Origin: an uncultured delta proteobacterium
Lineage (GTDB): Bacteria > Myxococcota_A > Polyangia > Polyangiales > Polyangiaceae
DNA length: 64,000 nucleotides
Assembly: GCA_963696385.1 (NCBI GenBank)
Contig: CAVOKF010000004.1
Span: 32,001 to 96,000 of the forward strand
Reading direction: 5' to 3'
Shown: one piece after another, positions 3,799 through 49,519 of the stretch
Numbering within the stretch: the first letter of the stretch is position 1
Layout of the letters: every line of letters begins with the position of its first letter
Position numbers and translations under genes: made by a program
Notes under the pieces: generated by a model
What the model was told of the DNA's origin: nothing
The model's database searches: none
What the model saw: the letters and a program-made list of their open reading frames with translations, nothing else

Positions 3799-4265
3799 CC
3801 AAGACCGTCCGTCGCGGCCGCGTACGGCTGCTGCCCTACGTCGATCCGGCCCTCGCTCAGCGCGTCGACCAATTCTGTGCGGCGACCGACGTGACGGTGA
3901 GTGCTGTCGTCGCGGCCGCTATCGGGCAGTACCTCGATGGTACGAGCGACGCGACGCTCGTCTTGCGACGCCTGGACCGGCTCGGCCGCGCCGTCGCTCG
4001 CAACCAACGAGACGTGGAGCTGTTGTCGGAAGCGTTCGCCGTGTTCGTACGTCTCTGGTTTGCGCATACGCCGGCGATCCCCGAAGCTGCGAAGGGCTCC
4101 GTACGCGCGAGCGCCGAGAGCCGGTACCGGCAATTCGTCGAGCACGTCGCCGAACAGTTCTCCGGCGGCCACCGCTTTCTCGACGACTTGCCGCACGAAG
4201 CGATCGGCGACGAAGGCGAGCTCGCCGCGGTGGCCGAATCCGCCGCTCTACAACCCCAAAAGTGA
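3795..4265 (+). CDS. CopG/ribbon-helix-helix protein of the kind that follows traG in Tn4371-like ICEs
   Basis: Overlaps the traG stop (ATGA); RRLDRL...LLSEAFAVFVRLWFAHTP pattern. Confidence 0.75.
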   Translation: MTKTVRRGRVRLLPYVDPALAQRVDQFCAATDVTVSAVVAAAIGQYLDGTSDATLVLRRLDRLGRAVARNQRDVELLSEAFAVFVRLWFAHTPAIPEAAKGSVRASAESRYRQFVEHVAEQFSGGHRFLDDLPHEAIGDEGELAAVAESAALQPQK

Positions 4266-4432
4266 GCCGGATCGATCCCGACCGTGAGAAGGCCGACCCC
4301 CTTCCAGCGGGGCTGACTGGGGCGGTGGCCGCGTCACCCTCGGGACAGGACCGGGTCACCCGACGCGGATGGCTTTCGCCGTGAAATCCAGTCGCGTGAG
4401 CGTGGCACGAAAATGGGCGTGTTCGAGCGCCC

Positions 4433-6136
4433 GTGGCCGCTCTCGCGCCCGCCTACGTTCCCCGTCGCCCGACCGAAACGGTCCTGTACGGATTGGTGCG
4501 CGAGAATCTGGAATCGTTTCTCGCGTACGCGCGCGAGAACTACGAGGGAGGGCTACCCCGCTACGTGGAAGCGGAGCTGCGCGCGTACTTGAATTGCGGC
4601 GTATTTGCGTGCGGATTTACGCGCTGCCACTGCGACTCATGCGGCCACGACTTGCTTGTGGCTTTTTCGTGCAAGGGAAGATCTCTCTGCCCCAGCTGCT
4701 GCGGCAGGCGTATGGCCAACACGGCTGCCCACTTGGTCGATCGAGTCTTGCCCGACGTCCCTGTGCGGCAATACGTTCTGTCGCTCCCGTACGAGCTTCG
4801 CAAGCTTGCGGCGTTCAAGGCCGACGTTCTCACAGCCCTGGGCCGCATCTTCGTCGAGGCCATCTTTGCCCGCTACCGCGCTCGCGCCCAGCGCGAGGGC
4901 CTCGAGGATGCGCAGTGCGGAGCGGTAACCTTTGTTCAACGCTTCGGCAGTTTGAATCTCAACGTGCATTTTCACGTGTTGGTGCTCGATGGCGTCGTCA
5001 CCCGGGACCCGGACCGTCGTGTGCTCTTTCATCCGGCGGCCGCTCCGACGCCGGTCGAGCTCGAGGTGCTGGTGGACCGCGTGATGAACCGTAGCGTGGC
5101 GTGGCTGCGCCGCCACGGCCATGTGCAGGACACGCCGCTCGAAGAGCGCTCGAACGAGCCGCCGGCGCAGACTGCCCTCGACGCGTGCGCGGACATCGCC
5201 ATGGGCCGCGGCACAGTCGCAACCTTGTCGAACGACGACGACGGGTCGAAAGACGATGACCGCGAGGCGCGGCCCGACGGGCTCGTCGGCGCGGTCGAGC
5301 GAGACGGGTTTAATGTGCATGCCGGGGTCCGGATCGAAGCGGGCGACCATCTGGGTCGCGAACGACTGGCGCGCTACGGCGCGCGACCTCCGCTCTCGCT
5401 CGAGCGCCTTCGTAGGTTGCCCGGCGGGCGGGTGGCCTATCGACTCAAGTACGTCCGTCGCGGCCGAGGCAAGTACAGAATCATGACTGGCCTGGAGTTC
5501 ATGGCCCGCTTGAGCGCGATCATTGCGCCGCCTCGGTATCCGTTGGTGCGCTACAGCGGAGTGCTCGGGCCACACTCGAGCTGGCGACGCGACGTGGTGC
5601 CGAAGCCGCGCGAGACGGCTCCCGCCTGCCACCGCGCGCCTACCCCACCGCTGAGCCCGGCCAAGCCGGTCACCGGCGCAATGACGCATCCGGGCTCGGC
5701 GCTTCCCGGGGCGGCGGCGCCGACAGCGGGCAAAGTCGAGAGTGCTCCGGCGCCGGCCGCCAGTTCCTCGACGAAGACGGGTCTGTCCGCGCTCCCCATC
5801 TTCGCGCATCGGGGCGAGGTCATCCCGCTCACGCCGAATGTGCTTGCTGTCAGCCACTGGGAACGGCTGCTCGGCGGCGCCATCTACGCGGCCTCGCCGC
5901 GCGTGGACTGGCCCACGCTCTTGAAACGAACGTTTGACGTGGACGTTCTGCAATGTCCGAAGTGCCACGGCCGACTGCGGGTGCTCGCCGTGATCACCGA
6001 GCGCGAGCCGGTGCGCCAGGTCCTCGCCCATCTCGGCCTGCCGACCGAGGCGCCGCCCGTCGCCCGGGCGCGCGACCCGACTGACGACGCGCAAGACGCC
6101 GAGCCGTCGGATCAACTCGAGCTGCAGCTCGCGTGA
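4433..6136 (+). CDS. IS91/ISCR-like rolling-circle (Y2) transposase
   Basis: Zn-binding FSCKGRSLCPSC, HUH motif NVHFHVLVLDG, RLARYGARP; oriIS-like GCGCTTTGAATC at ~6187-6198, cut by repeat copy 1. Confidence 0.9.
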   Translation: MAALAPAYVPRRPTETVLYGLVRENLESFLAYARENYEGGLPRYVEAELRAYLNCGVFACGFTRCHCDSCGHDLLVAFSCKGRSLCPSCCGRRMANTAAHLVDRVLPDVPVRQYVLSLPYELRKLAAFKADVLTALGRIFVEAIFARYRARAQREGLEDAQCGAVTFVQRFGSLNLNVHFHVLVLDGVVTRDPDRRVLFHPAAAPTPVELEVLVDRVMNRSVAWLRRHGHVQDTPLEERSNEPPAQTALDACADIAMGRGTVATLSNDDDGSKDDDREARPDGLVGAVERDGFNVHAGVRIEAGDHLGRERLARYGARPPLSLERLRRLPGGRVAYRLKYVRRGRGKYRIMTGLEFMARLSAIIAPPRYPLVRYSGVLGPHSSWRRDVVPKPRETAPACHRAPTPPLSPAKPVTGAMTHPGSALPGAAAPTAGKVESAPAPAASSSTKTGLSALPIFAHRGEVIPLTPNVLAVSHWERLLGGAIYAASPRVDWPTLLKRTFDVDVLQCPKCHGRLRVLAVITEREPVRQVLAHLGLPTEAPPVARARDPTDDAQDAEPSDQLELQLA

Positions 6137-6201
6137 ACGACCGGCCCCGAGAGCGGCGCGCCGATGCGGCGCCGCGCGGGCGACGTGCGCTTTGAATCTG
6201 T

Positions 6202-6312
6202 TCAAATCGGTTCGCCGATTCAGCGATAACGAACGCCCCTAAGACGCGATATGTTTCCGCGCCCGCTTCCGCGGCTCTTCGTCGACCGACGCACTTTGGG
6301 CTTACTACTCGC
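6202..6312 (+). repeat. 112-bp unit, copy 1 (dif-like core 6232-6259)
   Basis: TCAAATCGGTTCGCC...CCCCTAA-GACGCG-ATATGT...CTACTCGC; identical to 10713-10823. Confidence 0.97.
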
Positions 6313-7798
6313 TGTGACGAGCGGCGAATCCGTGAACGTGAACAGCGTGGACGAGGTGCCCGATTCGGCCTGGTTCACCAACCGACTCGGTGTCCGCCCG
6401 ATGAGCCTCGAGGAGCTGCGGCTGAACGAGTGCAAGAAGGAAGTGCTCCTCGACCCGGATCACACCCCGGACGGTGGGTGGCTCATCGACCAGGGCAAGA
6501 CCAGCGGGTCGACGCCGGGCTTTCGCATGACCGTGCCCGGCAAGGGCAAGTTCCTGGTCAAGGTCGAGGCCACCGGGCTGCCCGAGCGCCAAGTGGCGGC
6601 CACGGTGATCGGCGAGGCCGTCTACTATGCCGTCGGCTACAACGCGACGTGCGAGCAGGCACTGTGGGTCCGACCGTCGATCTTCACCCTGAAACCGGGG
6701 TTGAAGGCCGCACACGGCAACTTCGGGGATTACTACGACTTCGACAAGAAGGCGCTCGACGATCTGTTCGCCAAGTCCAACAAGCACCGCGGGCTGCTTC
6801 GCATCAGCGCCTCCGCGTGGGTGCCGGGATATGTCCTGCAGCAGTTTCGCTACGAGGGGGTGCGAGGCGACGATCCCAACGACGTCATTGCGCATCAGGA
6901 TCGTCGCGAGCTTCGCGCCGCGCGACTGCTCACGGCGTGGATCGATCACTTCGATGCGCGCGAAGGCAATTCGCTCGACACCTGGTTCACCGAAGTGAAA
7001 GGCGGTCCGCCCGACGCGTCGCCCGGTCACGTCGTCCACCTTCAGATGGGCACGAGCGCCGCTCTTGGATCGGTGTGGGACTGGGACCCCATCTCACGAC
7101 GGCTCGGCTACGCCTACGTCGTCGATTGGGGGGACATCGCGGTGGATTTCTTCACGCTGGGGGCCACCACGCGCGTCTGGGAACAGATCCAGAAGGTCCC
7201 GGGCCATGAGATGTTCGGCTACTTCAACGTCAAAGACTTCGATCCCGAGCGGTGGAAAAACGAATACCCGAATCCGGCGTTCTCGCGGATGACCGAACGC
7301 GACGGCGCGTGGATGGCGCGCATCCTGGCGCGGTTCACGCCGCCCATGGTCCGAACCTTGGTCGAGATGGCGAAGCTCGACGACCCAGCCAACACCGATT
7401 ATTTGCAGAGCGTCCTCGACGGCCGGTTGGCCAAGATTGTCGATCGCTACCTCACGCGGGTGTCGCCAATCGCCCAGGTGCGGGTCGATGGGCCGAGCCG
7501 GCTCTGTGGAGTCGACCTCGCGGAGTGGCGCGGCTTGCGCGATCCGTGGGCGTTTCGCTACGAGGCGCGGCTCCTTTCCGGACCGTGGTTGAACGTGGAA
7601 AGGCAACCGGGGGCACAGATCTGCGTGACGCTGCCCCACGTGGCTGCGGACGGCGGTGTCCCGGACGACGCGCCCGCGCGCTACGTTCGCGTGCGCATCC
7701 AAGACGGGGTGGCCACCGGACCGCTCGTGGCGCATCTGTACGATTTGGGGCCGGTGCGGGGCTACCGCCTGGCCGGCCTCGAGCGGCCCGATCGGTGA
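6313..7798 (+). pseudogene. 5'-truncated paralog of the 8931..10670 lipoprotein (atypical kinase-like)
   Basis: NVNSVDEVPDSAWFTNR lies ~90 aa into the paralog but directly follows the repeat here; the ORF-track start at 6251 is inside the repeat. Confidence 0.8.
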
Positions 7799-7897
7799 CA
7801 TCCCGGCACCCCCCGCGCGAGGCGATCCGATTTTGCCGGTGGGTGCGGGCGCCAAGAGCCGGCCCGCGAGGCGCGCGGGTGGGGGTGTTGGCCGCTC

Positions 7898-8767
7898 TCA
7901 GAATCGTCCCTGCAGCGTCAGCGAACCTCCTCCGGGCGCTGGCGCGACGCCCACCCATACGGCCGGAGCCTCCGCTTTGTGCCGATGAAGGTGCGGCACG
8001 AGAATCCCCACGGCCGATCCTGCTAACGATCCCGCAATGACGTCGCTCGGGAAGTGCTCGCCCGCGCGGACGCGCTCGTAGCTGACGAACGCGGTGAGCG
8101 CCGTGGCGATGCCGAGCGTGATCCACGGGCGAGGCGAGCGGGGCGATCGCACGAAGGCGAGGTACGTCGCCGTCGCGCCGATGGCCGAGACGCCTGCGGC
8201 GTGCCCGGAGAAGAAGGAAAGGCCGAGATCGGTGGAGTTGCAGCTGGCCGGCAGCGTGGTCGCGCCGTTCATCTCGCAGTTCTTGTAGTCGATGGGACGG
8301 GGCCGGCGAACGGCGATCTTGGTGATGTCCGTGAGTGTGAGCGCGAGCGATCCGGACTCCGCGTACATGAACGCGTCGACCAGCAATGCGTCGGTGCCGT
8401 CGCGAAAGCCCGACAGAACGGGATCGACCACCGCGAACCCGATGGCCGTATACAGGCCGATGTTCGAGTACGTCGCCGCGTGCGGATCGATCGTCTGCGT
8501 CACCGCGATTCGGTCGAAAAACAGAAGTTGGCTCACCGAGGCCGTCGGGACTGGGGGTTTGATCTCGCCGGTCCCGAGAACCAGCCCGAGCAAGCCCGCG
8601 AACCCGAAGCCCGTCACCGTCATCACGCCGTCGGAGACCGGGTCGAGGGAGAAGTGCTGTCCTTCCTCGAGGGGCGGGGAATCGGCCCGTGCGACGGACG
8701 CCGACAAGAGGACGGCTCCCAGAAAGCCCAGAGCCACCTGGCGTGACGATGTCGCAAACGTCCTCAT
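7898..8767 (-). CDS. PAP2-family phosphatase with signal peptide
   Basis: Motifs KIAVRRPRP, SFFSGH, RVRAGEHFPSDV. Confidence 0.9.
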   Translation of the reverse strand: MRTFATSSRQVALGFLGAVLLSASVARADSPPLEEGQHFSLDPVSDGVMTVTGFGFAGLLGLVLGTGEIKPPVPTASVSQLLFFDRIAVTQTIDPHAATYSNIGLYTAIGFAVVDPVLSGFRDGTDALLVDAFMYAESGSLALTLTDITKIAVRRPRPIDYKNCEMNGATTLPASCNSTDLGLSFFSGHAAGVSAIGATATYLAFVRSPRSPRPWITLGIATALTAFVSYERVRAGEHFPSDVIAGSLAGSAVGILVPHLHRHKAEAPAVWVGVAPAPGGGSLTLQGRF

Positions 8768-8930
8768 GGTGCTTGAGACGCTGGCGGCACCGGATTGTGA
8801 CGTCTCCGAAAGCCAATCGTGTGCCCACCCGATGGGCACGACGATCGCCTGCACCGCGTGACGCGCCGGCCGCACCGCGCCTCGCGCCGGACGCGAGCGG
8901 CCGCGTCCGATCTCGGCGAGGCGGGACACC

Positions 8931-10670
8931 TCAGGGCTCCGGCCGCTCCACCCCCGCGAGAAAGTACCCGCGTTTTGGGCCGAGATCGTACAAGGCCGCA
9001 ATGAGCGGCGCCTTCGCGACACCGTCGTCGAGGATCACTCGAACATACCGCGCGGGGGACGCGTCGGGCGGACCCCCGTCTCCGGCCACGTGCGGCAGAC
9101 GGACGCAGATTTCGCCGCCGCCATGCAACTCGACCGGCAGCAGGGCCCCGTTCGGCGCGCGGGCGGTGTAACGGAAGCGCGTGACATCGCACACGGCGCG
9201 CGCCTCGGCCAGGTCGACTCCGCAGAGCCGGTCGAGGCCTTCGACGCGCAGCTCGCCAATCGGCGAAAGCCGTGTCAGATACCGTTCGAGGATCCGTTCG
9301 AGCCGTCCTTCGAGCACGCGCACGAGATGCTGCGTGTTTCTCGGATCCGTGAAACGTGCCATCCCGGCAAACGCGCAAACCGCCTCGGGCGTGAAGCGCG
9401 CCAGGATACGAGCCATCCATGCCCCGTCGCGCTCGGTCATGCGGCTGAATGCCGGGTTCGGATACTGCATCCTCCATTGGTCGGGCACGAAGCTTCGGAC
9501 GTCGAAATTCCGGAACAGCTCGAATCCGGGATCGCCGAGCGGTCGATCCCAAGGGCGTGCCGGAATTCCGAGCGCCAAGAAGTCGGCTGCCATGTCGCCC
9601 CAGTCGACGATATACGCGTAGCCGAGCCGTTCGGTCACCGGTACGTGCCCGTAGTCGGGGCCGAGCGCATCGCTCCAGTCCAAATAGTAATGAACGACGT
9701 GACCCGGCGATCCGTCCGAAGCGACGTTCGGGTCGGCAAACCAAGAGTCCATGCTGTTGGCGTCCCGAGAGTCCCAATGATCGATCCACGCGGCGAGCAA
9801 GCGCGTGGCCCGCAGTTCCCTTCGATTCTCGTGGGCGATCACGTCGTTCGGGTCGTCCGGTCTCGTCCCGTCGTAATGAAAGGGGCCCAGAAGGTGCCCC
9901 GGAATCCATGCCGAGGCGCTCATCCTCACGAGCCCGCCACGCCGCGCGCAAGCCGCCAGGACCTGGTCGAGCGCTTTCGCGTCGAAGTCCTTTTCGTCTT
10001 CCAAAGTGCTGTGCCGGAAATGGAGGCCGGGGCTGAGCTTGAGCGCCGACGGCTTGAAGTACACGACTTGCTCGCAGCTCGCGTTGAAGCCGGCGGCGTC
10101 GTAAATCGCGGCGCCCACCACGGTCGCCGCGGTCGCAAGCTCGGGCTGCGCGGTCCCGTCGGCCTTGAACAGGTACTTGCCTTTGCCGGGGATGTTCACC
10201 CGAAACCCCGGAGTCGCGCCGTCCATTTTGCCACGGTCGATGACCCAGAGGCCGTCGGGCGGGTCCTCGGCGATCAGCAAGGACCGGTCGCACGCACCGA
10301 TCGGCACATCGCCCGGGCCCGGAAGGTGGCCGCCGCGCCGATTCGTGAACCACGCCGAATCGGGCACTTCGTCGACGCTGTTGACGTTCGTGGCCTCTCT
10401 CGCGACGGCCAGGGCGAGCGCGTCGGACATGGGGCGGAGCAGGACGTGATCCATGGCCGTCCAGATCTCGGGCACATCGATCGGCACCGGGGCACAAGAG
10501 ACGTGCCGTGGATCGCGCGCCGTGGGCTGGAGGCGGCAGGGCAGCGTTACGGACTGGAGATCCGAGTCTCTGTCCATCGGGGGGCGCAGCGCAAAGCGTC
10601 GCTCGGTCGGCATGCACGCCGACAGAGCGAGCGCCACGCACGCGAAGCGGACTTCATTCACGTTCGACAT
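8931..10670 (-). CDS. Lipoprotein of unknown function, possible atypical kinase fold
   Basis: Lipobox LSAC; YLFKAD..PE and WIDHWDSRDAN motifs; full-length paralog of 6313..7798. Confidence 0.75.
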   Translation of the reverse strand: MSNVNEVRFACVALALSACMPTERRFALRPPMDRDSDLQSVTLPCRLQPTARDPRHVSCAPVPIDVPEIWTAMDHVLLRPMSDALALAVAREATNVNSVDEVPDSAWFTNRRGGHLPGPGDVPIGACDRSLLIAEDPPDGLWVIDRGKMDGATPGFRVNIPGKGKYLFKADGTAQPELATAATVVGAAIYDAAGFNASCEQVVYFKPSALKLSPGLHFRHSTLEDEKDFDAKALDQVLAACARRGGLVRMSASAWIPGHLLGPFHYDGTRPDDPNDVIAHENRRELRATRLLAAWIDHWDSRDANSMDSWFADPNVASDGSPGHVVHYYLDWSDALGPDYGHVPVTERLGYAYIVDWGDMAADFLALGIPARPWDRPLGDPGFELFRNFDVRSFVPDQWRMQYPNPAFSRMTERDGAWMARILARFTPEAVCAFAGMARFTDPRNTQHLVRVLEGRLERILERYLTRLSPIGELRVEGLDRLCGVDLAEARAVCDVTRFRYTARAPNGALLPVELHGGGEICVRLPHVAGDGGPPDASPARYVRVILDDGVAKAPLIAALYDLGPKRGYFLAGVERPEP

Positions 10671-10711
10671 GATGCCCGAAGGGGCCGCTTCGTGACGATG
10701 CGGTAGCGACG

Positions 10712-10823
10712 CTCAAATCGGTTCGCCGATTCAGCGATAACGAACGCCCCTAAGACGCGATATGTTTCCGCGCCCGCTTCCGCGGCTCTTCGTCGACCGA
10801 CGCACTTTGGGCTTACTACTCGC
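10712..10823 (+). repeat. 112-bp unit, copy 2
   Basis: Identical to copy 1. Confidence 0.97.
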
Positions 10824-10971
10824 TCCCGACGATGACGAGACCGACCGCTGCGACGAGTCCGACCACGACCATGATCGGGTTGTCCAGTGCGGCGCCACAC
10901 CCTCCCAGCATCACGATCCCGCCGAAGAAATAGCAGCCGTTGCGGATCAGCTTCCGTTGCTCCGTGTTCAT
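10816..10971 (-). CDS. Small membrane protein; stop codon supplied by the repeat, probably 3'-truncated
   Basis: MNTEQRKLIRNGCYFFGGIVMLGG..., two hydrophobic segments, GGAGGG upstream. Confidence 0.5.
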   Translation of the reverse strand: MNTEQRKLIRNGCYFFGGIVMLGGCGAALDNPIMVVVGLVAAVGLVIVGSE

Positions 10972-11231
10972 CGGCCCTCCGAAACGATGCCAACGCTTAT
11001 CGTCGGCCTTGTCAACGGCGGCAGATGCGGGCGCGGGGACCCGAGGTTGGCACCCGCGTGCCCCGTCCACTCGCACGCGCGGCACGCCAGCGAGCAACTT
11101 GCGAACGACAACAGCCGGTCCACTTCGGCAGAGTACGCGTTGCCGCGATTATCGCGCGCGTCGTCCGCCACGCGCCCTCCGCCAGTCATCGCCGTTGACG
11201 TCGCCCGGGCGATCGGCCGACCATTGGGGCG

Positions 11232-12464
11232 ATGGGGGATGAGGAGAGGCGAACGGTTTGGATCCTTGGCGCGGGCTTCAGTCGATCGCTCGGCGGCCCG
11301 CTATTGCCCGACCTGCTTTCATCGGCGACGAATAATTTCGTTTCCTCTCTCTATCATAAAAACAAATTCATTGGGGGCCCCCCCGAGGAGCCCGATGACG
11401 TGTACCGCCGCGCGGCCCTCGCGGTGCGCCGCTTGTACGATAAATACGGGGACACAGCTGACCCCGGAATCCGCTTATGGGAGAATGCGGAAGAGTTTTT
11501 AGACCAGCTAGACGCCGCGGCCGAAAACGAGAGCGCTGCCAGTCGGATTTTCCGACCGATGACCTCCGAGCTCAATAATGCCCCCTGGATTTCCGGAGTG
11601 GAGACCCCGGACCTGCGCGACGCGGCGCGACGGCTCGTTGCCGCAGCGTGTTGCGCGTTCCTGCACGGTGCGAATACGAATGAAGAACGCTGGCAGCCGT
11701 ACCAGGCGTGGGCCGCCGACCTAACGTCGTCGGACACGGTCGTGACGTTCAATTACGACCGGGTGTTGGAAACCCTCGGAGGGTTTGACGTCGTGGTGCC
11801 TGCGCCGCCGGAGGTACTCACCTCGCAGGTCGTCCCGCTCGTGCCGCCGCTAGGCGCTAAGCCGAAAGTCTTCAAGCTACACGGCAGCGTCGATTGGCGC
11901 CGTGAACTAGAGAAGCCGGTAAGATACTTGCTAGCGTCGCCCGAATACGCTCTTGAATGCGATGGCGTAAACATCGGAATCGCTACACCGGGCCCAACTA
12001 AGCGTCTAGCGACTCAGGAATTGAGCCGATTGTGGACCGATGCGTGTGAGCATATTCAGCGAGCCGAGGTAATTGTCTTCGTTGGGTACCGCTTCCCGCG
12101 AACCGATGCGGAAGCACGCGGAACGCTTTTGAAGGCGATCAGGGAAAACAAGTCCCCTCATCTCGAGTTGCACATCGTGCTCGGTCCGGATCGGCGAATC
12201 CCGGACGTCGTCCGGCTTCAACAGCTGCTCCGCTACAGAATGGCGAGCGCGGGCCGGAAGGGGCAACGAGTTTTGCCCCCAAGCGCCCAGAGGATGACTG
12301 CCGCGAAGCCCGCAAACGAGACGCGAAATGATTTTCGGCTAATGACCCACGCCCTCTATGCGGAGGACTTCTTCACCGTGTGGGATCGCGACGTCTTGTG
12401 GCCCCCATCAGAGGGGGTAAGCTCAAACGATCGTGTGACCATCGAGCCGTTGCCGCCCGACTGA
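11232..12464 (+). CDS. SIR2-like domain protein (candidate NADase defence effector)
   Basis: ILGAGFS, TFNYD, KLHGSVDW and FVGYRFPxxD motifs. Confidence 0.85.
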   Translation: MGDEERRTVWILGAGFSRSLGGPLLPDLLSSATNNFVSSLYHKNKFIGGPPEEPDDVYRRAALAVRRLYDKYGDTADPGIRLWENAEEFLDQLDAAAENESAASRIFRPMTSELNNAPWISGVETPDLRDAARRLVAAACCAFLHGANTNEERWQPYQAWAADLTSSDTVVTFNYDRVLETLGGFDVVVPAPPEVLTSQVVPLVPPLGAKPKVFKLHGSVDWRRELEKPVRYLLASPEYALECDGVNIGIATPGPTKRLATQELSRLWTDACEHIQRAEVIVFVGYRFPRTDAEARGTLLKAIRENKSPHLELHIVLGPDRRIPDVVRLQQLLRYRMASAGRKGQRVLPPSAQRMTAAKPANETRNDFRLMTHALYAEDFFTVWDRDVLWPPSEGVSSNDRVTIEPLPPD

Positions 12465-12477
12465 CGGTGTCCGGGCG

Positions 12478-12589
12478 GCGAGTAGGCGGCGCAAAGCTTG
12501 TCGGCCGACGAAGAGACGCGGAAACCGCCGCGGTCACATAAAAGGCCTTTGGGGCGCTCGTTGTCATTGAAAGCGCCGTCCCAATTGAG
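12478..12589 (-). repeat. 112-bp unit, copy 3 (diverged, inverted)
   Basis: Reverse complement CTCAATTGGG...GCCCCAAA-GGCCTT-TTATGTGACC...CTACTCGC; same length and colinear with copy 2. Confidence 0.92.
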
Positions 12590-12876
12590 CGCACGGAAAT
12601 CGTCCCCTTTGGCAACGACATCCTGGCCGGCACGCCCCGGGCGATGCCCTACAGCGGGGTAAGCCGGATGAAGTTTCAGGCGAATGCCGTGGCTGGCCGA
12701 AAGGAGAAGTCTGTCTTGAAGCCCAACTGCACGTTGAGTCTCGTCCCCTCGCCCGAGGGCGTTCTCGCTCGCTGCTCGGAGAAAAGCACCTCGTCGCACT
12801 TGACGGTCACCGATTTGGCTCGTTCTTCGGTGTTGTTGGATGGCGAAGCGCAAGCAAATTCAATCGACCCGGGACT

Positions 12877-14058
12877 TCACTGGCATTCAGCTGAGTTCGG
12901 AGGATTTGCGCCGGTCGCGCTGTAGGACGCACATATGGCCGCTGAGAACGCGCCCGTCACATGGTCAACTTTGACGGTGTTGATTATGTTCTGCGCATTC
13001 CAGGGGCTTAAATTCAGATCGAAGGTCCCTATGATTTCCGATGCCGTTACAGTTGAGACTGTGACGGTACCGCTTACGGACTGCTCGCATGCCGTTGGAT
13101 TGTCGCTTTGGTCGTAGGCGGCACCGTAAAACGCCCCCGCTCCTATCGTCGCCCCCGCTGAGGTTAGGACGTCGAACGTGCCTGGCGTCAACGATGAGTT
13201 TGTTACAATGTCGAGGTACAAGACAGTTTGGTTGGGGGAGGGCCCGCTGTCGTCTTCCGTCCAGGCGTTTCCAGGTCCGCCATCTGGGTTTAATGCGCAT
13301 AAGTCGGCGAGGTTTGCGATGGATACGTTGGAGAGAACGATGCTCGTCACGTTGGTATCGGGAGCTAACCCGGGATTCCCCACGGGGACATTGCCGGCGA
13401 AGGCACTCTGGATGATCAACTCCTGCCCGCCGATCGTGCCAGTAGCGCTGTTCGCGGAGGCTTCGCTCGATCCGTCGGATGCATCGGCGGCATCCGGTCC
13501 TGCGTCACAATTCGGCTCCAGAATGTACGAACATTCGCCGCTGCTCGGAATGCACGAGCCCGGCGTCAATTCGCAAGTCGTTGGCGGAGTCACGCACGCG
13601 GTGGATCCCCCTGTCGCTGTCGTGCAGCCCCCGCACGGATCCTTTACTGTGCAGGTAGTCGCCTCACCATCCGCGTCGCTGGCGTCCGGGGTGCCATCGA
13701 TTACATCGGGCTCGATTACGTCCAATACAGTCGCATCGCGATTGGCGTCTGCTTCCCCGTCTGTGTCCCCATCTGCTTCGCCGTCCGTCGTTGCATCCTT
13801 GCCCCCGTCCAATTCACTCGACAACGAGCTTGAACTGGTCGTTGAGCTTGAACTCGACGACGAGCTTGAAGGTTCAGGGGGCGGCGGAGGCGAAGGGCTT
13901 CCGCAAGCAGCTAGGACCTCAAAATGTGTGGTCACGACCGCGAGTGCGGCGATTCGCCACGGTTCCAGCCTCACGAAATGCCTCCCGCTGGAGCTATCGA
14001 CGCGGAAAACCGACATTGGCGCCAAGATCGCACAAAGTGGACCAGGCTCAGGTGGCAC
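12877..14058 (-). CDS. Secreted or lipoprotein with Pro/Ser linker and Asp/Cys-rich repeats
   Basis: LAACG lipobox-like motif, poly-S tract, Cys-rich segment; visibly lower GC than flanks. Confidence 0.65.
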   Translation of the reverse strand: MPPEPGPLCAILAPMSVFRVDSSSGRHFVRLEPWRIAALAVVTTHFEVLAACGSPSPPPPPEPSSSSSSSSSTTSSSSLSSELDGGKDATTDGEADGDTDGEADANRDATVLDVIEPDVIDGTPDASDADGEATTCTVKDPCGGCTTATGGSTACVTPPTTCELTPGSCIPSSGECSYILEPNCDAGPDAADASDGSSEASANSATGTIGGQELIIQSAFAGNVPVGNPGLAPDTNVTSIVLSNVSIANLADLCALNPDGGPGNAWTEDDSGPSPNQTVLYLDIVTNSSLTPGTFDVLTSAGATIGAGAFYGAAYDQSDNPTACEQSVSGTVTVSTVTASEIIGTFDLNLSPWNAQNIINTVKVDHVTGAFSAAICASYSATGANPPNSAECQ

Positions 14059-14440
14059 GCTTGCAACAAAATAAGTTCAACAATATTGGAAAAATCGTGC
14101 GAGCTCAGACTTCAGACGGTCCGAGAGCGGACTTGGCGGAGCCTGAATGTGGCACACAAAGCTACATGTGGCGCTGGGCGCTACCTTGTGGCTCCGTGCA
14201 CCACACGTGTGCGGGGGGGCAGTGTCCGCTACCTGGCTTTGATCGGCCACATTCCCCGCTGTACTTCGGGCATGTATCCGTTTCGTACGGCTCCCGAGCT
14301 CTCCCAGGCCATCCCCGGCCCCCCTGTCCTGGCTCCTTGGGCTGTCCGCCGGCTTCAGGCAGCGGCGCAATAGTCATGATGAAGGCCGCCGAGCACGGGG
14401 ATGGCCTCGACCGGGCCAGCATACTTGGCCAAACGGGACT

Positions 14441-14563
14441 CTCAAATCGGTTCGCCGATTCAGCGATAACGAACGCCCCTAAGACGCGATTAAGACGCGA
14501 TATGTTTCCGCGGTGGCTTCCGCGTCTCTTCGTCGACCGACGTGCTTTGGGCTTACTACTCGC
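14441..14563 (+). repeat. 112-bp unit, copy 4, with a duplication in the core
   Basis: AAGACGCGAT-T-AAGACGCGAT at 14481-14501. Confidence 0.95.
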
Positions 14564-15420
14564 CAGCGAGCTGCCGTGCTGCTCGTCGAGCGGCTTGCAA
14601 ACCTGCTTGCCACGTCCCCGGACCTGCCGGAGCTACGACCGTGACGGTCTTGCGAAACGGCAAAGCGCCGCGCTGGAGCGAGCACGAGGCGTCGAGTGAG
14701 CACTTCGTCGGCGGCATCTCGCCCCTCTGGATGTTCGACTACCAGCTTCAGGGGCTCTTCTCAGTCGTGGAACTCGCGCGAGCCAGGAGTCGAGAGGAGC
14801 CCCACCTCTACGGCGACGTTCTGCGGCGCGCCGCGGAAGTGGCGCTCATCGGCGCGCTCGGCTTCTTCGAGGCGTTTTGCAAACACCAGTTTGCGGCGCT
14901 TTTGACGCTGCATGCCCCTCTGCTCGTCGACTTCGCCAACCGGCGTCAGGAGGCGAGCCTCCGGCTCTCGGCACTCGCTTCAGCCGCCGGAGAACTCGAC
15001 GTCAAGATCGGCTTCATCGTCGCCGAGTCGTACGACTTCGGATCGGCCAAGCAAATCAATGGACTCTTCCGCGATCTCCTCGAGTGCTCGCCGTTGCCGA
15101 AAGATGAGGGGGACGAGCTCGACGCCATCCTTCGCAAGCGCCACCTCATCGTGCACCACGGCGGTATTGTTACAACTGAATCGGCTCGGGCAAAGGCACC
15201 GGTCCTTCCGTCTGGCCAGGCGTTTCGAGACGTCGTCGGGGTCGAGCCCGACGAGTACCACGACATCGCGGACTTCCTGCGGCTCTCGGCCGTCAAGGTA
15301 GCCGTCTGCACGGTGCAAGCCCTCAAGCGTCGCACGCGCGACCTATCTGATCTTGCCGTCGACCGACAGCAAGACGTGGAGCTTCTGCTCAGGGCCGTGT
15401 GGCATCAGCTCGACGCGTGA
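14564..15420 (+). CDS. HEPN-like (RxxxxH) protein, true start uncertain or truncated
   Basis: IGALGFFEAFCK helix and RKRHLIVHHGG motif. Confidence 0.6.
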
Positions 15421-15449
15421 ACGAGCCCCCTCGACCTTTGGGCCCTGCT

Positions 15450-15683
15450 CTACTTGCGTCGCTTTCGTCCAGGGCCTGCAGGCCATGAAACCTGCTTGGA
15501 GCGTTCGAGCCATCCCTCGGTGACGGCCTCGCGCACCTTCACCCGCAGAAGCTCCTCGGCGGCCTCGGTGCGGTTCTTTCCGAACAGGCCGGTCTGCACC
15601 AGTGCGTCGAGCGCCGAGAGCACCTCGGGCGTCGTCGACAGGTGCAGTTTCTTGGTCCCGACCGAGTTGGGCCCGCGTGCCAT
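15450..15683 (-). CDS. Small ribbon-helix-helix-like DNA-binding protein
   Basis: KKLHLSTTPEVLSALDALVQTGLFGKNRTEAAEELLR. Confidence 0.6.
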   Translation of the reverse strand: MARGPNSVGTKKLHLSTTPEVLSALDALVQTGLFGKNRTEAAEELLRVKVREAVTEGWLERSKQVSWPAGPGRKRRK

Positions 15684-15715
15684 GATCCAAGTAGATCCTG
15701 ATCTAGGATCTTGAT

Positions 15716-16161
15716 ATGCTCAAGCCCGTGAGCGCCGATTTGGCCGGCCAGAGGGTCGGATCCCTCGACGATGCGCGGACTGCGTTGGTGCTGCCGCCAC
15801 GTCCCGAACCGCGATCTGCGCGCAGAACGCTGCGCGTCGGCAGCCGCACGCTCACCGTCACGCCGGTCTTCGACACGTACTGGCGCTTCGCCTGCCAGCG
15901 GCAGGAGGTCTTCCACCGGCGAGCCGCGGGCGACCCCCCCGCCGTGGACGGACGATCCCATTCTTGGCGGGCACCGTTTCACGAATGCCTACCGCGCTTC
16001 GGATCGGGTGAGCCAGTTCCTCATCCGCCACGTGCTCTACGCCGGCAGTCAGGACGAAGAGGAGGTTTTCTTCCGTTGCCTGCTCTTCAAGATTTTTAAC
16101 CGGATCGATACGTGGGAGCACCTTAGGCTTCACGTCGGCGAGGTGCGCTGGAACAGCTACT
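15716..16161 (+). pseudogene. Nucleotide-kinase-associated / 5-hmdU DNA kinase helical-domain protein, frameshifted at the C-run ~15934-15940 and 3'-truncated by repeat copy 5
   Basis: TPVFDTYWRFACQRQEVFHRR joins PPWTDDPILGGHRFTNAYRASDRVSQFLI...LLFKIFNRIDTW. Confidence 0.75.
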
Positions 16162-16210
16162 CTCAAATCGGTTCGCCGCTCGGTGACAACGGAAGCCCCT
16201 AAGACGCGAT
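16162..16210 (+). repeat. 112-bp unit, copy 5 (left half, interrupted in the core by IS4)
   Basis: CTCAAATCGGTTCGCCG...CCCCTAAGACGCGAT directly followed by the IS4 end CATAGGTAGG. Confidence 0.9.
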
Positions 16211-16591
16211 CATAGGTAGGATCTTTATTTCCCGAGTGATCTCGATCACTTACGTGCATAGTGCACGAATTGGGTAGTCAAAGGCATCGGGGATTCTCTA
16301 GACGCTGTTGTGAGACAACGCGAAAGGAGACCCCCGATGCACGGATCAAACAGTACACGCGCCGGAGTCGGCGTGTATGCGAAACGGCTTACGGAAGTAC
16401 TCGGCGAGGAGCAGGTGACCGCGATCGCGAGACGTAGCGGCTGGCTACGGCGAGTGCGCAAGGTGATGCCGCTGGCGATGGTCGTGGCGGTGCTGTCGAC
16501 GCTCGGGTCGGGCCACGCCAAGTGGTTGGCCGATATTCTGCGGACGTTCCGGAAATTCGCGGGCCTTTCGCTGCGATATAAGCCCTTTCAC
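16211..16591 (+). mobile_element. 5' fragment of the IS4 element at 40770..42245
   Basis: Near-identical to 40770-41150; ends abruptly at repeat copy 6. Confidence 0.95.
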
Positions 16592-16702
16592 CAAATCGGT
16601 TCGCCGATTCAGCGATAACGAACGCCCCTAAGACGCGATATGTTTCCGCGGGGTCGTCCGCGGCTCTTCGTCGACCGACGCACTTTTGGGCTTACTACTC
16701 GC
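16592..16702 (+). repeat. 112-bp unit, copy 6
   Basis: CAAATCGGTTCGCC...CTACTCGC; left half identical to copy 1, right half variant. Confidence 0.95.
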
Positions 16703-17034
16703 CGAACAGAATCCACGGGCGGTCGAGACTATGCTTCGTGAGCAGCGCGACCACGTCGGTGCATTTGCTTCAGCTTCAGCGCAGCCATGATCGCCTGATA
16801 CCACTCGCTGCCGTACTCGATGCCCGTGTTGCCTTTCTTATCCGAAGACCGGAACGACTTCAGATTGCCGCCGCTTGCGTCGGTGAGCAGGTTGCTGAAC
16901 GCCTCGGCCAGCTTCGCGTCGCGGCTGTCGTGGCTGATGAACACAAGCGGCTTGGAGGACTGAACGAGCGACGATTCGCCGTTCGCCGCCTCGTTTGTCT
17001 TCCCGTTTCCCGCTTCCTGCTTCCGCTTCGCCAT
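16703..17034 (-). pseudogene. TIR-domain protein, frameshifted at ~16770 and truncated by repeat copy 6
   Basis: VFISHDSRD...GIEYGSEWY; another frame continues TDVVALLTKHSLDRPWILF and stops at the repeat. Confidence 0.8.
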
Positions 17035-17150
17035 GCCCGCCGCCCCCGGGTGCCGTGATCCCGCACGATCGCACAACCGGACGCATCGGGTAAGCCCTGG
17101 CCAAGATCGGTTCTCGGCATACCCGTCAAGTGTTCAGTATGCTCCCGCCA

Positions 17151-17345
17151 ATGCCCGACAACACCCGTCCGCCGCGCAACCTCCACATCGACGACCAGCC
17201 GAACCTCGGCACCCGCGCGCTGATGACGGCCGTCGACGAGCTGGCCAAGGCGCACCGGCTTGCCGGAGCCCGCGTCGCCTACAAGCGCAACGCCAAGGGC
17301 GAGCACGTCGTCGCGGTCATCTTCACCGGCTTCGAGCGCACGTAG
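17151..17345 (+). CDS. Small hypothetical protein
   Basis: GC3-biased 64-aa ORF MPDNTRPPRNLHIDDQPNLG... Confidence 0.4.
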   Translation: MPDNTRPPRNLHIDDQPNLGTRALMTAVDELAKAHRLAGARVAYKRNAKGEHVVAVIFTGFERT

Positions 17346-17498
17346 CGGCCCGAATCCGTATTCCGGTGCGCCGGAGGCGAAACCCGGTTTCGCCATGCGG
17401 CCCGCATCGGCGCGCAGAGCCCTGCAGCCAAGATAGGCGATCGCTCCGATCGGAACCCGGGTTCCGGTCCCGGTTGGTCCGCCGACGGCCGCTCCGAC

Positions 17499-17577
17499 TG
17501 ACAACGAGCGCCCCAAAGGCCTTTTATGTGACCGCGGCGGTTTCCGCGTCTCTTCGTCGGCCGACAAGCTTTGCGCC
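17499..17577 (+). repeat. 112-bp unit, copy 7 (partial; IS66 begins near its right end)
   Basis: TGACAACGAGCGCCCCAAAGGCCTTTTATGTG...CTTTGCGCC identical to copy 3. Confidence 0.92.
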
Positions 17578-17638
17578 GTAACCGTCCGGCCGGGCCCGCA
17601 CTTGATTTAGGGGCAGAAAGCGCGGTGCGATCGGGGGC

Positions 17639-17959
17639 ATGGGACGCGAGCGTCGGTCGCGAGTCTGGTGGTCAAGCCGAGTGGCGCGTTGGCGGCGCAG
17701 CGGGCTTACGGCGCGGCAATTCGCCGAGAGCGAAGGGCTTTCGGTGTTCTCGCTTCGGTGGTGGTCGAGCCAGTTGGCTCGTGATAACCGTGCGGAGCAC
17801 GGTGCGTCGGCGATCGAGCCGATCGAGATCACCGTCGAGGGGCGTCAGGCCGGCCGCGAACTGGTCGAAGTCGTGGTCGGCGCGGCGACGATCCGCTGCG
17901 AGCGGGGGACGGACGTCGGATACATTGCGGCGCTGGTTCGTGCGATCGCGGGTGCATGA
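17639..17959 (+). CDS. tnpA: IS66 TnpA
   Basis: WRRSGLTARQFAESEGLS HTH. Confidence 0.85.
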   Translation: MGRERRSRVWWSSRVARWRRSGLTARQFAESEGLSVFSLRWWSSQLARDNRAEHGASAIEPIEITVEGRQAGRELVEVVVGAATIRCERGTDVGYIAALVRAIAGA

Positions 17960-18321
17960 CGGTGTTCGGTTTCTCGCCTCACGTTCGCGTGTACCTCGCG
18001 TCGCAGCCGGTCGACATGCGTGCAGGCCACGACAGTCTGTTCGCGATCGTGAAGAGCTGGGACCTGAATCCGTTCAGCGGGGACCTGTTTGCGTTCGTTG
18101 GGAAACGACGAGACCGGGTGAAGATTTTGGTGTGGCACCGCGGGGGATTTTTATTGGTCTACAAGCGGTTGGAAAGAAATCGATTTCGGATCCCTGCGAT
18201 CCAGCCGGGAACGCGGACGGCGATGCTCGATGCGACGCAGCTGGCGATGTTGCTCGATGGCATCGACGTCCAACACGTTCAACGCCCCGCGCTGTGGCAG
18301 CCTCCGGGTCTGGCGCGCTGA
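17956..18321 (+). CDS. tnpB: IS66 TnpB accessory protein
   Basis: PVDMRAGHDSL...KILVWHRGGFLLVYKRLE. Confidence 0.92.
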   Translation: MTVFGFSPHVRVYLASQPVDMRAGHDSLFAIVKSWDLNPFSGDLFAFVGKRRDRVKILVWHRGGFLLVYKRLERNRFRIPAIQPGTRTAMLDATQLAMLLDGIDVQHVQRPALWQPPGLAR

Positions 18322-18428
18322 GCCCCGTCGCGGCCCTGTGTGTCCATTGGACACTTTGTCGCTGAAATCGTCGTCGGCCCCCACGCTAAGCCTTTTAATC
18401 TGCGCGGCGATGGTGCACGAAAAGGATC

Positions 18429-20033
18429 GTGGTTGATGCGCGAGACGTCCGCATCGCGAAGCTTGTGGAGCTGCGCAAGCGCGCCGAAGAGCGTGAGCGA
18501 CAACTGGGCGAGATCGTCGCGCAGCAGCAGACGCTGATCGCTGCGCAGCAGCAACTCATCGCCGAGCTGCAGCGTCGACTGTCCGAGCAAGATGCGCAGC
18601 AGAAGGCGCGCGCCGAAGAGATGAAGGCCGAGATCGACCGGCTGGAGCGGCAACTGTTGGGCCCGAAGACCGAGCGGACCCACGTTCCGCCGATCGACGC
18701 CGAGCTTCGCAACACCGAACCGATGACCGACGAAGAGCGCGCGCGCCGTCGCGAAGAGATTGCACGCAAGCGACGCGAACGCGCACTCGCGAAGAACGCC
18801 GCGATGGCCGTCGAGCAGGTCGAGTACCCGGTACCCGAATCGATGAAGCCGTGCGCTCATTGTGGCGGCGTGCATGCGCGAGCTCTCGAGCCCGAGCAGA
18901 GCACGACGTACGAGTACAAGCCGGGTCACTTCATCCGTCGTGTGCACAAGCGGCAGAAGCTCGCATGCAGCTGCGGCCAGTCCATCGTGACGGCGCCGCC
19001 GCCTCCGAAGCTCGTCGTCGGTGGACAGTACGGCTTCGGGTTCGCCGCATTCCTCATCGTGGAGAAGTGCGCCGACTCGATTCCCATTCATCGCATTGAG
19101 AAACGATTCGGCCGACTTGGGATCCCGATCTCGCGCAGCACGATGAACGATCTCGTTCACAAGGCTGCCGAGATTGTTCGACCGCTCGTCGCTCGACTGC
19201 AGACGCGAATCGCGGCTCTCGAAGTCGTGCTCGCCGACGAGACCTCGATGCGCTTGCAGGACCGTCCCAAGCGCGGCTTTGTCTGGGTGTTTCACGGTCA
19301 CGATGAAGTCAGCGGCGGCAAGCTTGTTCTGTATGCCTTCGCCGTCGATCGAAGCGGCGACACGCCGGCGAAGATCCTGGGTGGCACTCGCGGCACTCTC
19401 GTGGTGGACGGATACACGGGGTACAACCAGGTGACCGACCCGCTCGGACGCGCGCGCGGCGGATGCTGGAGCCACATGCGCAGAAAGCTCTTCGAGGCGC
19501 GCTCCACCCGTGCGGCCGAGGACATCGACCCCGCGCTCGGGATCATCCGCGAGATCTTTCGTGTCGAACACGACGCGACCGAGCAGAAGATCGTCCGCAC
19601 TCCGGCCCATCTCGAGCTGCGAAATGCGCGTAGCGCTCCGCTGGTCGAGCAATTCTTTCAGTGGGCCGAACACAAGAAGGTCGAGGTCCTTCCGAAGGGC
19701 CCGCTCGGCGAGGCGCTCGGTTACGCGATTAACCAACGCGCTCGACTCGAGCTTTTCTTGTCGGATCCGCGTATTCCGATGCACAACAACGGCTCAGAGT
19801 CCCGCTTACGCGTTATTGCTCTGGCTCGCCATACGTACCTTTTCTTCGGACATCCACTCGCGGGCAAAAACTTCGCGGGGCTCTACTCGCTCGTCGGCTC
19901 CTGCATCGCCAACGAAGTCGAGCCGACGGAGTATCTCACCGACGTACTTGCGCGAGTCCGCGACGCAACGACCGACGAGCAGCTCGACGCGCTGCTACCC
20001 GATCGGTGGGCGCCCCACGGTCCAGCGCCCTGA
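18429..20033 (+). CDS. tnpC: IS66 TnpC DDE transposase
   Basis: Coiled coil, CAHCGG Zn finger, ADET, VDGYTGY, CWSHMRRK. Confidence 0.93.
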   Translation: MVDARDVRIAKLVELRKRAEERERQLGEIVAQQQTLIAAQQQLIAELQRRLSEQDAQQKARAEEMKAEIDRLERQLLGPKTERTHVPPIDAELRNTEPMTDEERARRREEIARKRRERALAKNAAMAVEQVEYPVPESMKPCAHCGGVHARALEPEQSTTYEYKPGHFIRRVHKRQKLACSCGQSIVTAPPPPKLVVGGQYGFGFAAFLIVEKCADSIPIHRIEKRFGRLGIPISRSTMNDLVHKAAEIVRPLVARLQTRIAALEVVLADETSMRLQDRPKRGFVWVFHGHDEVSGGKLVLYAFAVDRSGDTPAKILGGTRGTLVVDGYTGYNQVTDPLGRARGGCWSHMRRKLFEARSTRAAEDIDPALGIIREIFRVEHDATEQKIVRTPAHLELRNARSAPLVEQFFQWAEHKKVEVLPKGPLGEALGYAINQRARLELFLSDPRIPMHNNGSESRLRVIALARHTYLFFGHPLAGKNFAGLYSLVGSCIANEVEPTEYLTDVLARVRDATTDEQLDALLPDRWAPHGPAP

Positions 20034-20416
20034 ACCACTGGGGCGCAGCGCAACTCCCGCAATCCCCGAACGCGTCGCGCGTCGTCACGTCGATGCAGAG
20101 TGTCGCCCGAGTCCGCGACGCGACCCCAGCACGACGTGCCGCTATCCATACGAGCGCAGCGCCTCGCCTCTGCCCCCCTGAACCACTGGCCTGAAGTCGC
20201 CAAGCATGGTCGCGCTCTGTTGCGGCCGCGGCAACGACGTCAACGCGACGATGCTCTTGGCGTGCTCGCCAACAATCGCGACGAGTACTGGGACAAGAAG
20301 CTCGCCGCCGATACTTGGCAGGGGCCTCATCGCGGGAAAGGCCCGCCCCCTGAACCATTCTTGGACTCAGGTCAACAGCGGGGCGCGCCGGACGCTTACG
20401 TGGAAAGGGTGCAGTT

Positions 20417-20904
20417 GTGACCGATGTAGAAGCTACAGCAGCCGCGAGAATCGCACTTCGGTGTCTCATCGAAGAGACAGCTTCAATGGCTGCCGCAAAC
20501 AGCATGACGCCCGAGGCCCTGCGAGGCATCGCCTATTATGACATGTCACGCGATGCCCCGATTCTTGCGCTGGACGCATTTGGAAAGGCAACACAGGTAG
20601 TCACCTCGCTTCCTGAGTTTTTGGCGCGTTTTGACGCCCAGGACGTCACGCGTATTGTCATACAGTTTGTATACGAATATTACGCCCGCAGTAACAGCAT
20701 CCTTTACGACGATGTTGTCTTTGAAGCCGTGTGGTCTGACTTCACGGCAGAAATCCAAGAGCCCCTGTGGGTGACGCGAGGAGTCGCCAACGTCAGAAAC
20801 TTCACGAGCGATAACCACGCACTGGCGCTGGGGGACGGCGTAGCGATCCGAGGGCGAAGTAACGACGAGCTCACCGCCCTGGGTTTTAGCGGTGCCGTTC
20901 TGGA
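20417..20904 (+). pseudogene. Hypothetical passenger gene 3'-truncated by repeat copy 8, preceded by a VERVQL* integrase remnant (20400-20420)
   Basis: Lower-GC ORF runs into the repeat; VERVQL* matches the end of the 50579..51677 recombinase. Confidence 0.6.
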
Positions 20905-21016
20905 CTCAAATCGGTTCGCCATTACAGCGACGGCGGAAGCCCCTAACGGGTTATATGTGACCGCCGCGGTTTCCGCGGCTCTTCGTTGATCGATACGCTT
21001 TCGACCGGCTACTCGC
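20905..21016 (+). repeat. 112-bp unit, copy 8 (diverged)
   Basis: CTCAAATCGGTTCGCC...GCCCCTAA-CGGGTT-ATATGTGACC...CTACTCGC; exactly 112 bp. Confidence 0.93.
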
Positions 21017-24282: not shown

Positions 24283-24394
24283 AGCGCCATCCCGAGTGAA
24301 GTCGACTGCTGTCGGCGTTCCTCCCCCACTTCCCATTCCATCCCGTCGAGAGGACAAGTCCGAATGACTGCGATCCAGACCGCGCGAGGACACG

Positions 24395-40762: not shown

Positions 40763-40769
40763 ACGCGCT

Positions 40770-49443: not shown

Positions 49444-49519
49444 AGCGAAGCTAGCTGCCGTTCTTGCAAGTGAAAGTCTTGCCGATGGAATCAACCAGTT
49501 ACCATCGTAGTTATACCCA

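Follow-up and report, generated by a model that had tools for sequence, protein, structure and literature searches.

What is the short unit of about 112 bp that recurs nine times, between otherwise unrelated sequences, in a 64,000-nt stretch of DNA from an uncultured Polyangiaceae bacterium (contig CAVOKF010000004.1, positions 32,001 to 96,000; hereafter the window)? An earlier reading made from the letters alone (the sequence-only reading) saw in it a new recombination-site system with a dif-like core, whose copies mark the breakpoints of a cassette array. Our analysis makes it highly probable that the unit is instead the terminal segment, on the origin (oriIS) side, of a resident insertion sequence (IS) of about 1,991 bp that belongs to the rolling-circle IS91 family (HUH-Y2 transposases), and that this segment has spread mostly as solo miniatures. 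Since it would then be an IS91-type origin end, the unit belongs to a kind of mobile DNA that is already known and is not a new system.

All nine copies were recovered, each at most 2 nt from where it was first placed, by three methods: a repeat search of the window, which returned a 112-nt direct family with inverted partners; an alignment of the nine copies, in which the borders are sharp; and an nhmmer profile (made from six of the window copies and used at E<1e-3), which matched the window exactly nine times. The copies are listed below; contigs of the genome that holds the window (G000) are given as C1, C2 and so on.

6203-6312, plus strand: complete unit that forms the 110-bp terminus of the IS on its oriIS side, 66 bp past the stop codon of the transposase gene tnpA
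10714-10823, plus strand: complete solo unit with 100% identity to the IS-linked copy (6203-6312)
12478-12587, minus strand: complete solo unit that belongs to a second lineage and matches, at 100%, the unit that terminates the IS91 variant at G000:C7:1421596
14443-14563, plus strand: complete solo unit with an 11-bp internal duplication (TAAGACGCGAT twice) at the insertion site of an IS4-like element
16164-16210, plus strand: partial unit, the left 47 nt, cut on its right side by an IS; on the left it truncates a fragment of a 5-hydroxymethyldeoxyuridine (5-hmdU) DNA kinase gene
16592-16702, plus strand: complete solo unit
17498-17577, plus strand: partial unit (profile positions 27-106), cut on its right side by IS66
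20907-21016, plus strand: complete solo unit of a third lineage
49333-49443, minus strand: partial unit (profile positions 18-118, the first ~17 nt gone), between two unrelated group II intron fragments

The first of these copies forms the end of a recognizable transposable element, with the following features:

4322-6312, plus strand: IS91-family IS, ~1,991 bp; its left boundary lies within 4315-4322 and its right boundary is the right end of the unit
4433-6136, plus strand: tnpA, encoding a 567-aa HUH-Y2 rolling-circle transposase (assigned from Pfam and motifs)

The transposase (TnpA) matches Y2_Tnp (PF04986, E=2.4e-23) and Zn_Tnp_IS91 (PF14319, E=3.2e-17), carries the motifs HFH (residues 179-181) and YRLKY (336-340), and is read through to a sole, terminal stop codon; by tblastn it is 35-37% identical to transposases annotated as IS91, ISCR1 and ISVsa3. 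Besides the window copy, tnpA is intact in one other copy, on C6. As judged by pairwise BLAST and MAFFT, four full copies of the IS are homologous from 4315/4322 to 6312 and diverge directly after CTACTCGC; the IS is therefore about 1,991 bp long, with the unit making up the last 110 bp. In other words, the IS ends exactly at the right end of the unit, and the sequence-only reading, which listed an IS91 ori end among the sequences that the unit cuts, had taken for a cut what is the end itself. The unit is present, moreover, at every tnpA that keeps its 3′ end: a tblastn search of the genome found six such genes, a unit in the same orientation follows the stop codon by 64-67 bp in all six, and no IS copy without the unit was found among them. 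At two further units, the 3′ tail of the IS precedes the unit over at least 147 bp.

Several diverged lineages of the IS each have identical solo copies. The IS-linked units of four lineages are 75-79% identical to one another, and each is matched at 99-100% by solo units: that of the window IS by the units at 10714-10823 and C4:1147307, that of C7:1421596 by the unit at 12478-12587 and two others, that of C7:1439461 by two, and that of C4:1027309 by one. The left boundary is identical across the solo units of all four lineages and therefore fits a recurrent product defined by a mechanism, not random erosion.

In the whole genome (6.94 Mb in 8 contigs, 66% G+C) the profile found 97 matches, which are clustered in 27 of 142 50-kb bins. 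This number is a lower bound, because a degenerate short remnant of the left end of a unit at C1:323760-323794 (CCAAATCGGACTGTGAACC...) escaped the profile; a complete unit stands at that site in a genome of the same genus (G003) and in three metagenome contigs. Complete units (CAAWT...CTAYTCRC, modal length 110 nt) account for 39 of the 97 matches, beside ~58 partial copies, and the right end is intact in 65. Three extents share this right end: 110 nt (39 copies), ~90 nt (several copies) and 1,991 bp (the full IS). A pyrimidine (Y) precedes the unit in 37 of the 39 complete copies and follows it in 36, with no flank consensus beyond the adjoining base among these 39, so the sharp ends described earlier hold. 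The same is true of the absence of target-site duplications (TSD), as the two flanks of the 39 units agree over 0 nt in 24 cases and over 1 nt in 15, which equals randomly re-paired flanks, and of the absence of terminal inverted repeats (TIR), with only 10 of 25 terminal positions complementary. That the unit is short, non-coding and derived from a mobile element was likewise seen correctly. Rfam gave no match at gathering score on any window unit, and at E<=10 its best E-value on 6150-6360 was 6.9; the known IS end that the unit does match is that of the resident IS91-family element.

DNA to the left of the fixed right end is shared to different extents: C4:1135733-1138008 and C6 have 2,276 bp in common, the window (from 3927) and C6 have 2,386 bp, and contig C187 of another genome (G025) matches the window over at least 3,811 bp, at 85% identity and stopping exactly at 6312. 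A fixed right end with a variable left extent is the pattern expected of one-ended transposition; shared ancestry of a larger island could also yield variable left extents.

The common left boundary, together with the precedent of IS801, is the reason why we read the unit as a miniature of the right end that would arise when transposition terminates early. According to PMC3189936, right-end pieces of IS801 of 229, 360 and 679 nt were recovered in a trap plasmid in Pseudomonas syringae pv. phaseolicola, and such miniatures made up 26% of the trapped IS801 insertions, each ending at a consensus tetranucleotide. By analogy, the transposase of the window IS would nick the bottom strand at the right end, between CTACTCGC and the following Y, and peel the strand off leftwards. 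Were it to stop early, ~110 nt in, at an internal site that reads ...AWTTG on the bottom strand, the 110-nt origin-end miniature would result; termination at the proper left end would give the full IS, and read-through would carry left-flanking DNA along in a one-ended transposition. Solo units would then act as breakpoints, so that their flanks end up coming from different loci. The unit is also struck by other mobile elements at fixed positions.

A number of results weigh against this reading. The left end of the miniature, CAAWT, is unlike that of the full IS, GCGGTGGCC... (GCGGTGG). At the right end of the 39 complete units there is no 4-nt consensus that would correspond to a target tetranucleotide of the CTTG/GTTC type, and the only preference is for C at +1 (11 of 13 uninterrupted targets). 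Folding of three single-stranded units, on both strands, gave z values of -1.2 to +0.3, no better than shuffled sequences, and an alignment fold with DNA parameters retained a 3-bp stem alone, hence almost no consensus structure; short GC-rich palindromes are visible by eye (CCGCG-N8-CGCGG; GTCGNNCGAC), to which the folding statistics lend no support. The missing half of an interrupted sequence adjoins the unit at none of 19 testable junctions, no clean filled/empty site of a miniature emerged from the comparison with G003 (14 regions), and no simple insertion was seen among 42 complete units in 86 metagenome loci. Finally, transposition is inferred here from sequence, not observed.

The alternative that survives best, though improbable, holds that the solo units are decay remnants, left where deletions and insertions wore down full copies of the IS, and that the 110-bp pieces were never mobile alone. 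The want of any filled/empty site and the many copies truncated by other elements are consistent with it, and so is the statement in PMC3189936, in its retrospective genome analysis, that most natural IS801 fragments arose by reorganisation and not by one-ended transposition. Erosion, however, predicts scattered left boundaries, whereas 39 copies from at least four lineages share one to the nucleotide, and solo copies that are 100% identical to an IS-linked master argue for recent copying.

Somewhat less probable still is that the unit is an independent element, or a preferred target, beside whose left end an IS91-family element inserts, the true end of the IS being ...TGTT(C). The spacer between tnpA and the unit does end in GTTC or GGTC directly before CAAAT, and a tetranucleotide of the GTTC type serves other IS91-family members as target or terminus (PMC13181058); the left end of the unit is itself a sharp boundary, and other mobile elements clearly target the unit. 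Against it stand the unit's presence at all six tnpA 3′ ends, with no IS copy lacking it, and the way in which the unit variants follow the diverged IS lineages. The arrangement is also kept at 85% in another species-level genome, where homology stops at the right end of the unit, and the junction of spacer and unit differs between copies by point changes and a 1-nt indel (TTCAAAT versus TTCGAAAT), unlike what repeated precise insertions would leave. In IS91 the functional origin lies within the last ~82 bp, according to PMC13181058.

The weakest alternative takes up the earlier reading and makes the unit a target of some site-specific recombinase, Xer/dif-like or integron attC-like, by which gene cassettes are put together. 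It has in its favour that seven of the nine window copies are co-oriented and stand 0.4-4.5 kb apart with unrelated DNA between them, but it can be set aside with little hesitation, as the co-orientation does not extend genome-wide (neighbouring units within 10 kb: 36 on the same strand versus 26 on opposite strands, p=0.25), the supposed dif-like core shows a dyad symmetry no better than shuffles (11-nt arms with a 6-8-nt spacer; best score 7/11 in all 32 distinct units, and shuffles reach at least 7 in most trials), no single imperfect hairpin forms (fold z about -1 on either strand), terminal inverted core sites are absent (10 of 25 positions complementary), and the unit is physically the end of an IS with a HUH transposase.

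How, then, do the flanks of the solo units come to be mismatched? Uninterrupted paralogues elsewhere in the genome are available for 13 right and 6 left junctions, and in these the end of the unit is a clean break. The mismatch noted in the sequence-only reading is thus real where it can be tested, and none of the 19 junctions has flanks that rejoin into one gene, as a search proposed at that time might have found. The missing half was likewise not found within 30 kb of 13 units, nor beside another unit, where reciprocal recombination would have placed it (0 of 13 right and 0 of 6 left junctions), and no empty sites were found inside the genome with the flanks of the 39 complete units. What looked like a missing half at C4:1147307 turned out to be another copy of the same IS, uninterrupted and 1.5 kb away, rather than the sign of an insertion. 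Comparisons with G003 and with metagenomes returned shared sites, one-sided matches and one polymorphic left junction (C7:1383534-1383537), at which a 100%-identical contig has a unit and G000 continues through.

In the alignment the unit variants are mosaic: left module L1 is joined to right module R1 in some variants and to R4 in others, and the same holds for L4. Because of these mosaics we conclude that recombination between units has certainly occurred, in agreement with the sequence-only reading. As no clean filled/empty site was found, the route to mismatched flanks is one that we infer, the candidate sources being one-ended capture or transposition, adjacent deletion mediated by the transposase, and homologous recombination among the ~100 copies. 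The idea that new segments insert exactly at the right end of an existing unit found no support, because one segment of flank plus unit that is shared by C4:1146445-1147416 and C6:47535-46575 (92% identity) starts ~44-65 bp away from the preceding unit.

The right flank of the window IS illustrates a clean break:

6314-8826, plus strand: 2.5-kb partial copy of a chromosomal locus, with a 5′-truncated gene and a PAP2 gene (Pfam)

This flank begins in the middle of a gene exactly at the end of the IS, and the locus is intact in G003:C41 and at G000:C7:718629-711673. Its first part, 6314-7798 (plus strand), and the segment 8931-10670 (minus strand) are inverted paralogues of one gene family of unknown nature, 70-83% complementary, that face each other between the units at 6203 and 10714.

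The junctions are not assembly chimeras, a possibility that the earlier reading had raised and that contigs of independent origin rule out. Independent metagenome contigs show both junctions of at least three units (C7:1361153, C2:62245 and C7:1356203) at 99-100% identity; those of one more unit are reproduced in a contig of a separate metagenome-assembled genome (MAG), and several are shared with the relative G003. Among assembled contigs of public runs none spans a unit with at least 31 nt on both sides, as they break inside the unit; the joints seen in these runs have sides of 21-34 nt that lie inside the repeat, and so have no bearing on circles, deletions or chimeras.

Other mobile elements strike the unit at fixed positions. 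An IS110-family element (coding for a 451-aa DEDD/Transposase_20 protein) ends with ...CATCTAATCT against unit position 15 (TTCGCCG), a junction found in at least six units of different variants, which suggests sequence-specific homing to the IS91 origin end. What is probably a group II intron, with a reverse-transcriptase/maturase open reading frame (ORF; RVT_1 and GIIM domains) that ends 224 bp from the junction, adjoins position 100 of four units and lies on the opposite strand. Rfam gave no match to a guide or bridge RNA of the IS110-family element, none to domain V/VI beside the RVT_1/GIIM ORF, and nothing on two loci that contain the IS110-type element and the intron. Thirdly, unit position 54 is the insertion site of an IS4-like DDE_Tnp_1 element, which duplicates 10 bp of its target (AAGACGCGAT). 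Exactly at this site, five units have 11 bp repeated in tandem (TAAGACGCGAT twice), which may be an excision footprint or the result of slippage. The elements in question are:

L017:130-1500 (G000:C4:1018233-1019603) and L015:1602-2957: IS110-family element
G000:C2:23520, C4:1139750, C6:22245, C6:105678 and C6:114304: further copies of the IS110-family element
L015:104-1500 (G000:C6:20848-22244): probable group II intron, with further junctions at C6:105678, C7:1370153 and C7:1434088
14476-14497 and 49333-49443 in the window, and G000:C2:74011, C2:103537 and C7:1383861: units with the 11-bp duplication
16211-16591, plus strand: 5′ fragment (381 bp) of the IS4-like (DDE_Tnp_1) element, 99% identical to 40763-41062
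40770-42230: full IS4-like DDE_Tnp_1 element (ORF 40869-42209), with ~15 copies in the genome
17578-20399, plus strand: IS66-family element with tnpB and tnpC (Pfam TnpB_IS66, DDE_Tnp_IS66) and the ends GTAACCGTCC...GGACGCTTAC

The IS4-like fragment at 16211-16591 stops abruptly at the left end of the next unit, where full copies run on. The left end of the full element at 40770-42230 follows ACGCGCT, which resembles the site ACGCGAT in the unit. A copy of the IS66-family element that is 100% identical and has the same boundaries is present in G003:C193. The inverted unit at 49333-49443 is flanked by group II intron fragments (Rfam group-II-D1D4 at 48999-49225 and 49464-49631). These two fragments are unrelated (Rfam D1-D4-6 and D1-D4-4), and the region 48999-50108 is a mosaic with matches to C7:1358655-1358848, C2:77662-77855 and C3:47151-47824. 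IS256, which the sequence-only reading named among the sequences cut by the unit, had no Pfam match in the scanned ORFs.

A broader proposal can be put forward only tentatively: origin-end miniatures, instead of being dead remnants, may serve as portable sites of cleavage and joining for the HUH transposase, the islands of this genome would be large-scale ISCR-like mosaics, and other elements may have specialised in homing to the origin. Were this true, gene fragments would be captured, deleted and re-joined at unit ends in these islands, and a guild of homing elements would exist, consisting of the IS110-family element (unit position 15), the group II intron (position 100) and the IS4-like element (position 54).

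The DNA around the units contains further gene remnants. The ORF at 15771-16202 matches HMUDK_hel over positions 25-102 of the 281 of that profile and is thus a truncated gene for the helical domain of a 5-hmdU DNA kinase; an ORF within 11232-12464, between two units, has a weak match to SIR2_2 (E=5e-5). Each may be what is left of a gene for defence or DNA modification. Conjugation remnants lie in 2929-4265 and 21623-23525: a fragment of a TraG/VirD4 coupling protein, an ORF for a ribbon-helix-helix protein and a minus-strand relaxase/DUF3363 gene that is broken up into two ORFs. The region resembles a decayed island, either integrative or derived from a plasmid. Two tandem repeats of ~567-578 bp (80-88% identity) occupy 23800-24951.

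A search of related genomes, which the sequence-only reading had recommended, gave hits beyond the 97 in G000. At high identity the unit is present in one of the 30 genomes of the same genus that were searched (G003); a diverged form is present in G025, and 30 genomes from other genera yielded no unit. No claim made here rests on genomes G027 and G010, which are flagged as unpublished. A scan of 185,579 species genomes with the exact pattern found it in contigs of one Polyangiaceae bacterium MAG and in one contig of a MAG titled Acidobacteriaceae, which is 98% identical to G000:C6 over 824 bp. The unit is thus lineage-restricted. What is unusual here is its copy number, its small size and the way in which units mark breakpoints.

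The apparent new recombination-site system in this way resolves into the end of a rolling-circle IS. Right-end miniatures of the IS91 type have been trapped experimentally for IS801 and are rare in natural genomes, as far as the published IS801 account goes. The present version, at 110 nt, is near the minimal functional origin of IS91 (82 bp), exists in ~100 copies and stands at nearly every breakpoint in IS-rich islands. Because ~100 origin-end copies mark nearly every island breakpoint, this genome and its close relatives form a natural data set on termination by HUH-Y2 transposases, and also on ISCR-like capture and shuffling of genes outside clinical plasmids.

Among known systems, miniature inverted-repeat transposable elements resemble the unit in being short, non-coding, multi-copy derivatives of an IS, and differ from it in that the unit lacks TIR and TSD. 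Integron attC arrays and clusters of attC sites lacking integrases (CALINs) share with it repeats of ~110 bp between unrelated gene-sized segments and a local co-orientation, and attC sites are likewise targeted by IS110/IS1111-type elements and group II introns. In contrast to attC sites, the unit has neither a hairpin with inverted core sites nor co-orientation across the genome, and it is linked to a HUH transposase rather than to an integrase (no search for an integrase was made).

The IS91/ISCR elements (IS91, IS801, IS1294, ISCR1, ISCR2/ISVsa3) are much closer. Like them, the window IS has the transposase domains and motifs, is without TIR and TSD, and has functionally different ends, of which the origin end, downstream of tnpA, is fixed, with variable DNA beside it, and the extent of the other side varies. 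According to PMC13181058, terIS is the left end of IS91, the last 82 bp at the right end together with the tetranucleotide beside them are enough to act as oriIS, the oriIS of IS91 and of IS801 each have two subterminal palindromes, there is no TSD, and read-through occurs at a frequency of 1-10%; according to PMC6218425, oriIS lies downstream of the transposase gene in ISCR1 and the DNA on the oriIS side is variable. In the family oriIS thus occupies the last ~80-230 bp, downstream of tnpA, where the element ends; the window IS agrees with this, as its unit starts 64-67 bp past the stop codon and the homology among its full copies ends at 6312. It differs from the annotated members in that its TnpA is only 35-37% identical to theirs, in having only C at +1 in place of a CTTG/GTTC-type tetranucleotide at the origin end, and in its host, a high-GC genome with unit-bearing relatives in the Polyangiaceae and not a proteobacterial plasmid.

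For amplified IS91-derived miniatures the IS801 work was the only literature found, and the IS801 miniatures are the closest parallel. Both are continuous fragments, each of its own parent IS, with an intact right end, a defined internal stop and no transposase gene. The left end of the IS801 miniatures resembles the IS's own left end, and that of the unit does not; the unit's left end is the constant CAAWT, whose bottom strand (TTTG/ATTG) resembles the CTTG of IS91, and TTTG is listed as a rare target in Table 2 of PMC13181058. They differ further in that no simple insertion into intact sequence was found here (0 of 19 junctions, G003 and metagenomes), and in that the unit is shorter, at 110 nt. 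The difference in number is large: 39 complete and ~58 partial copies in this genome, as against two natural copies of the IS801 miniatures reported in PMC3189936.

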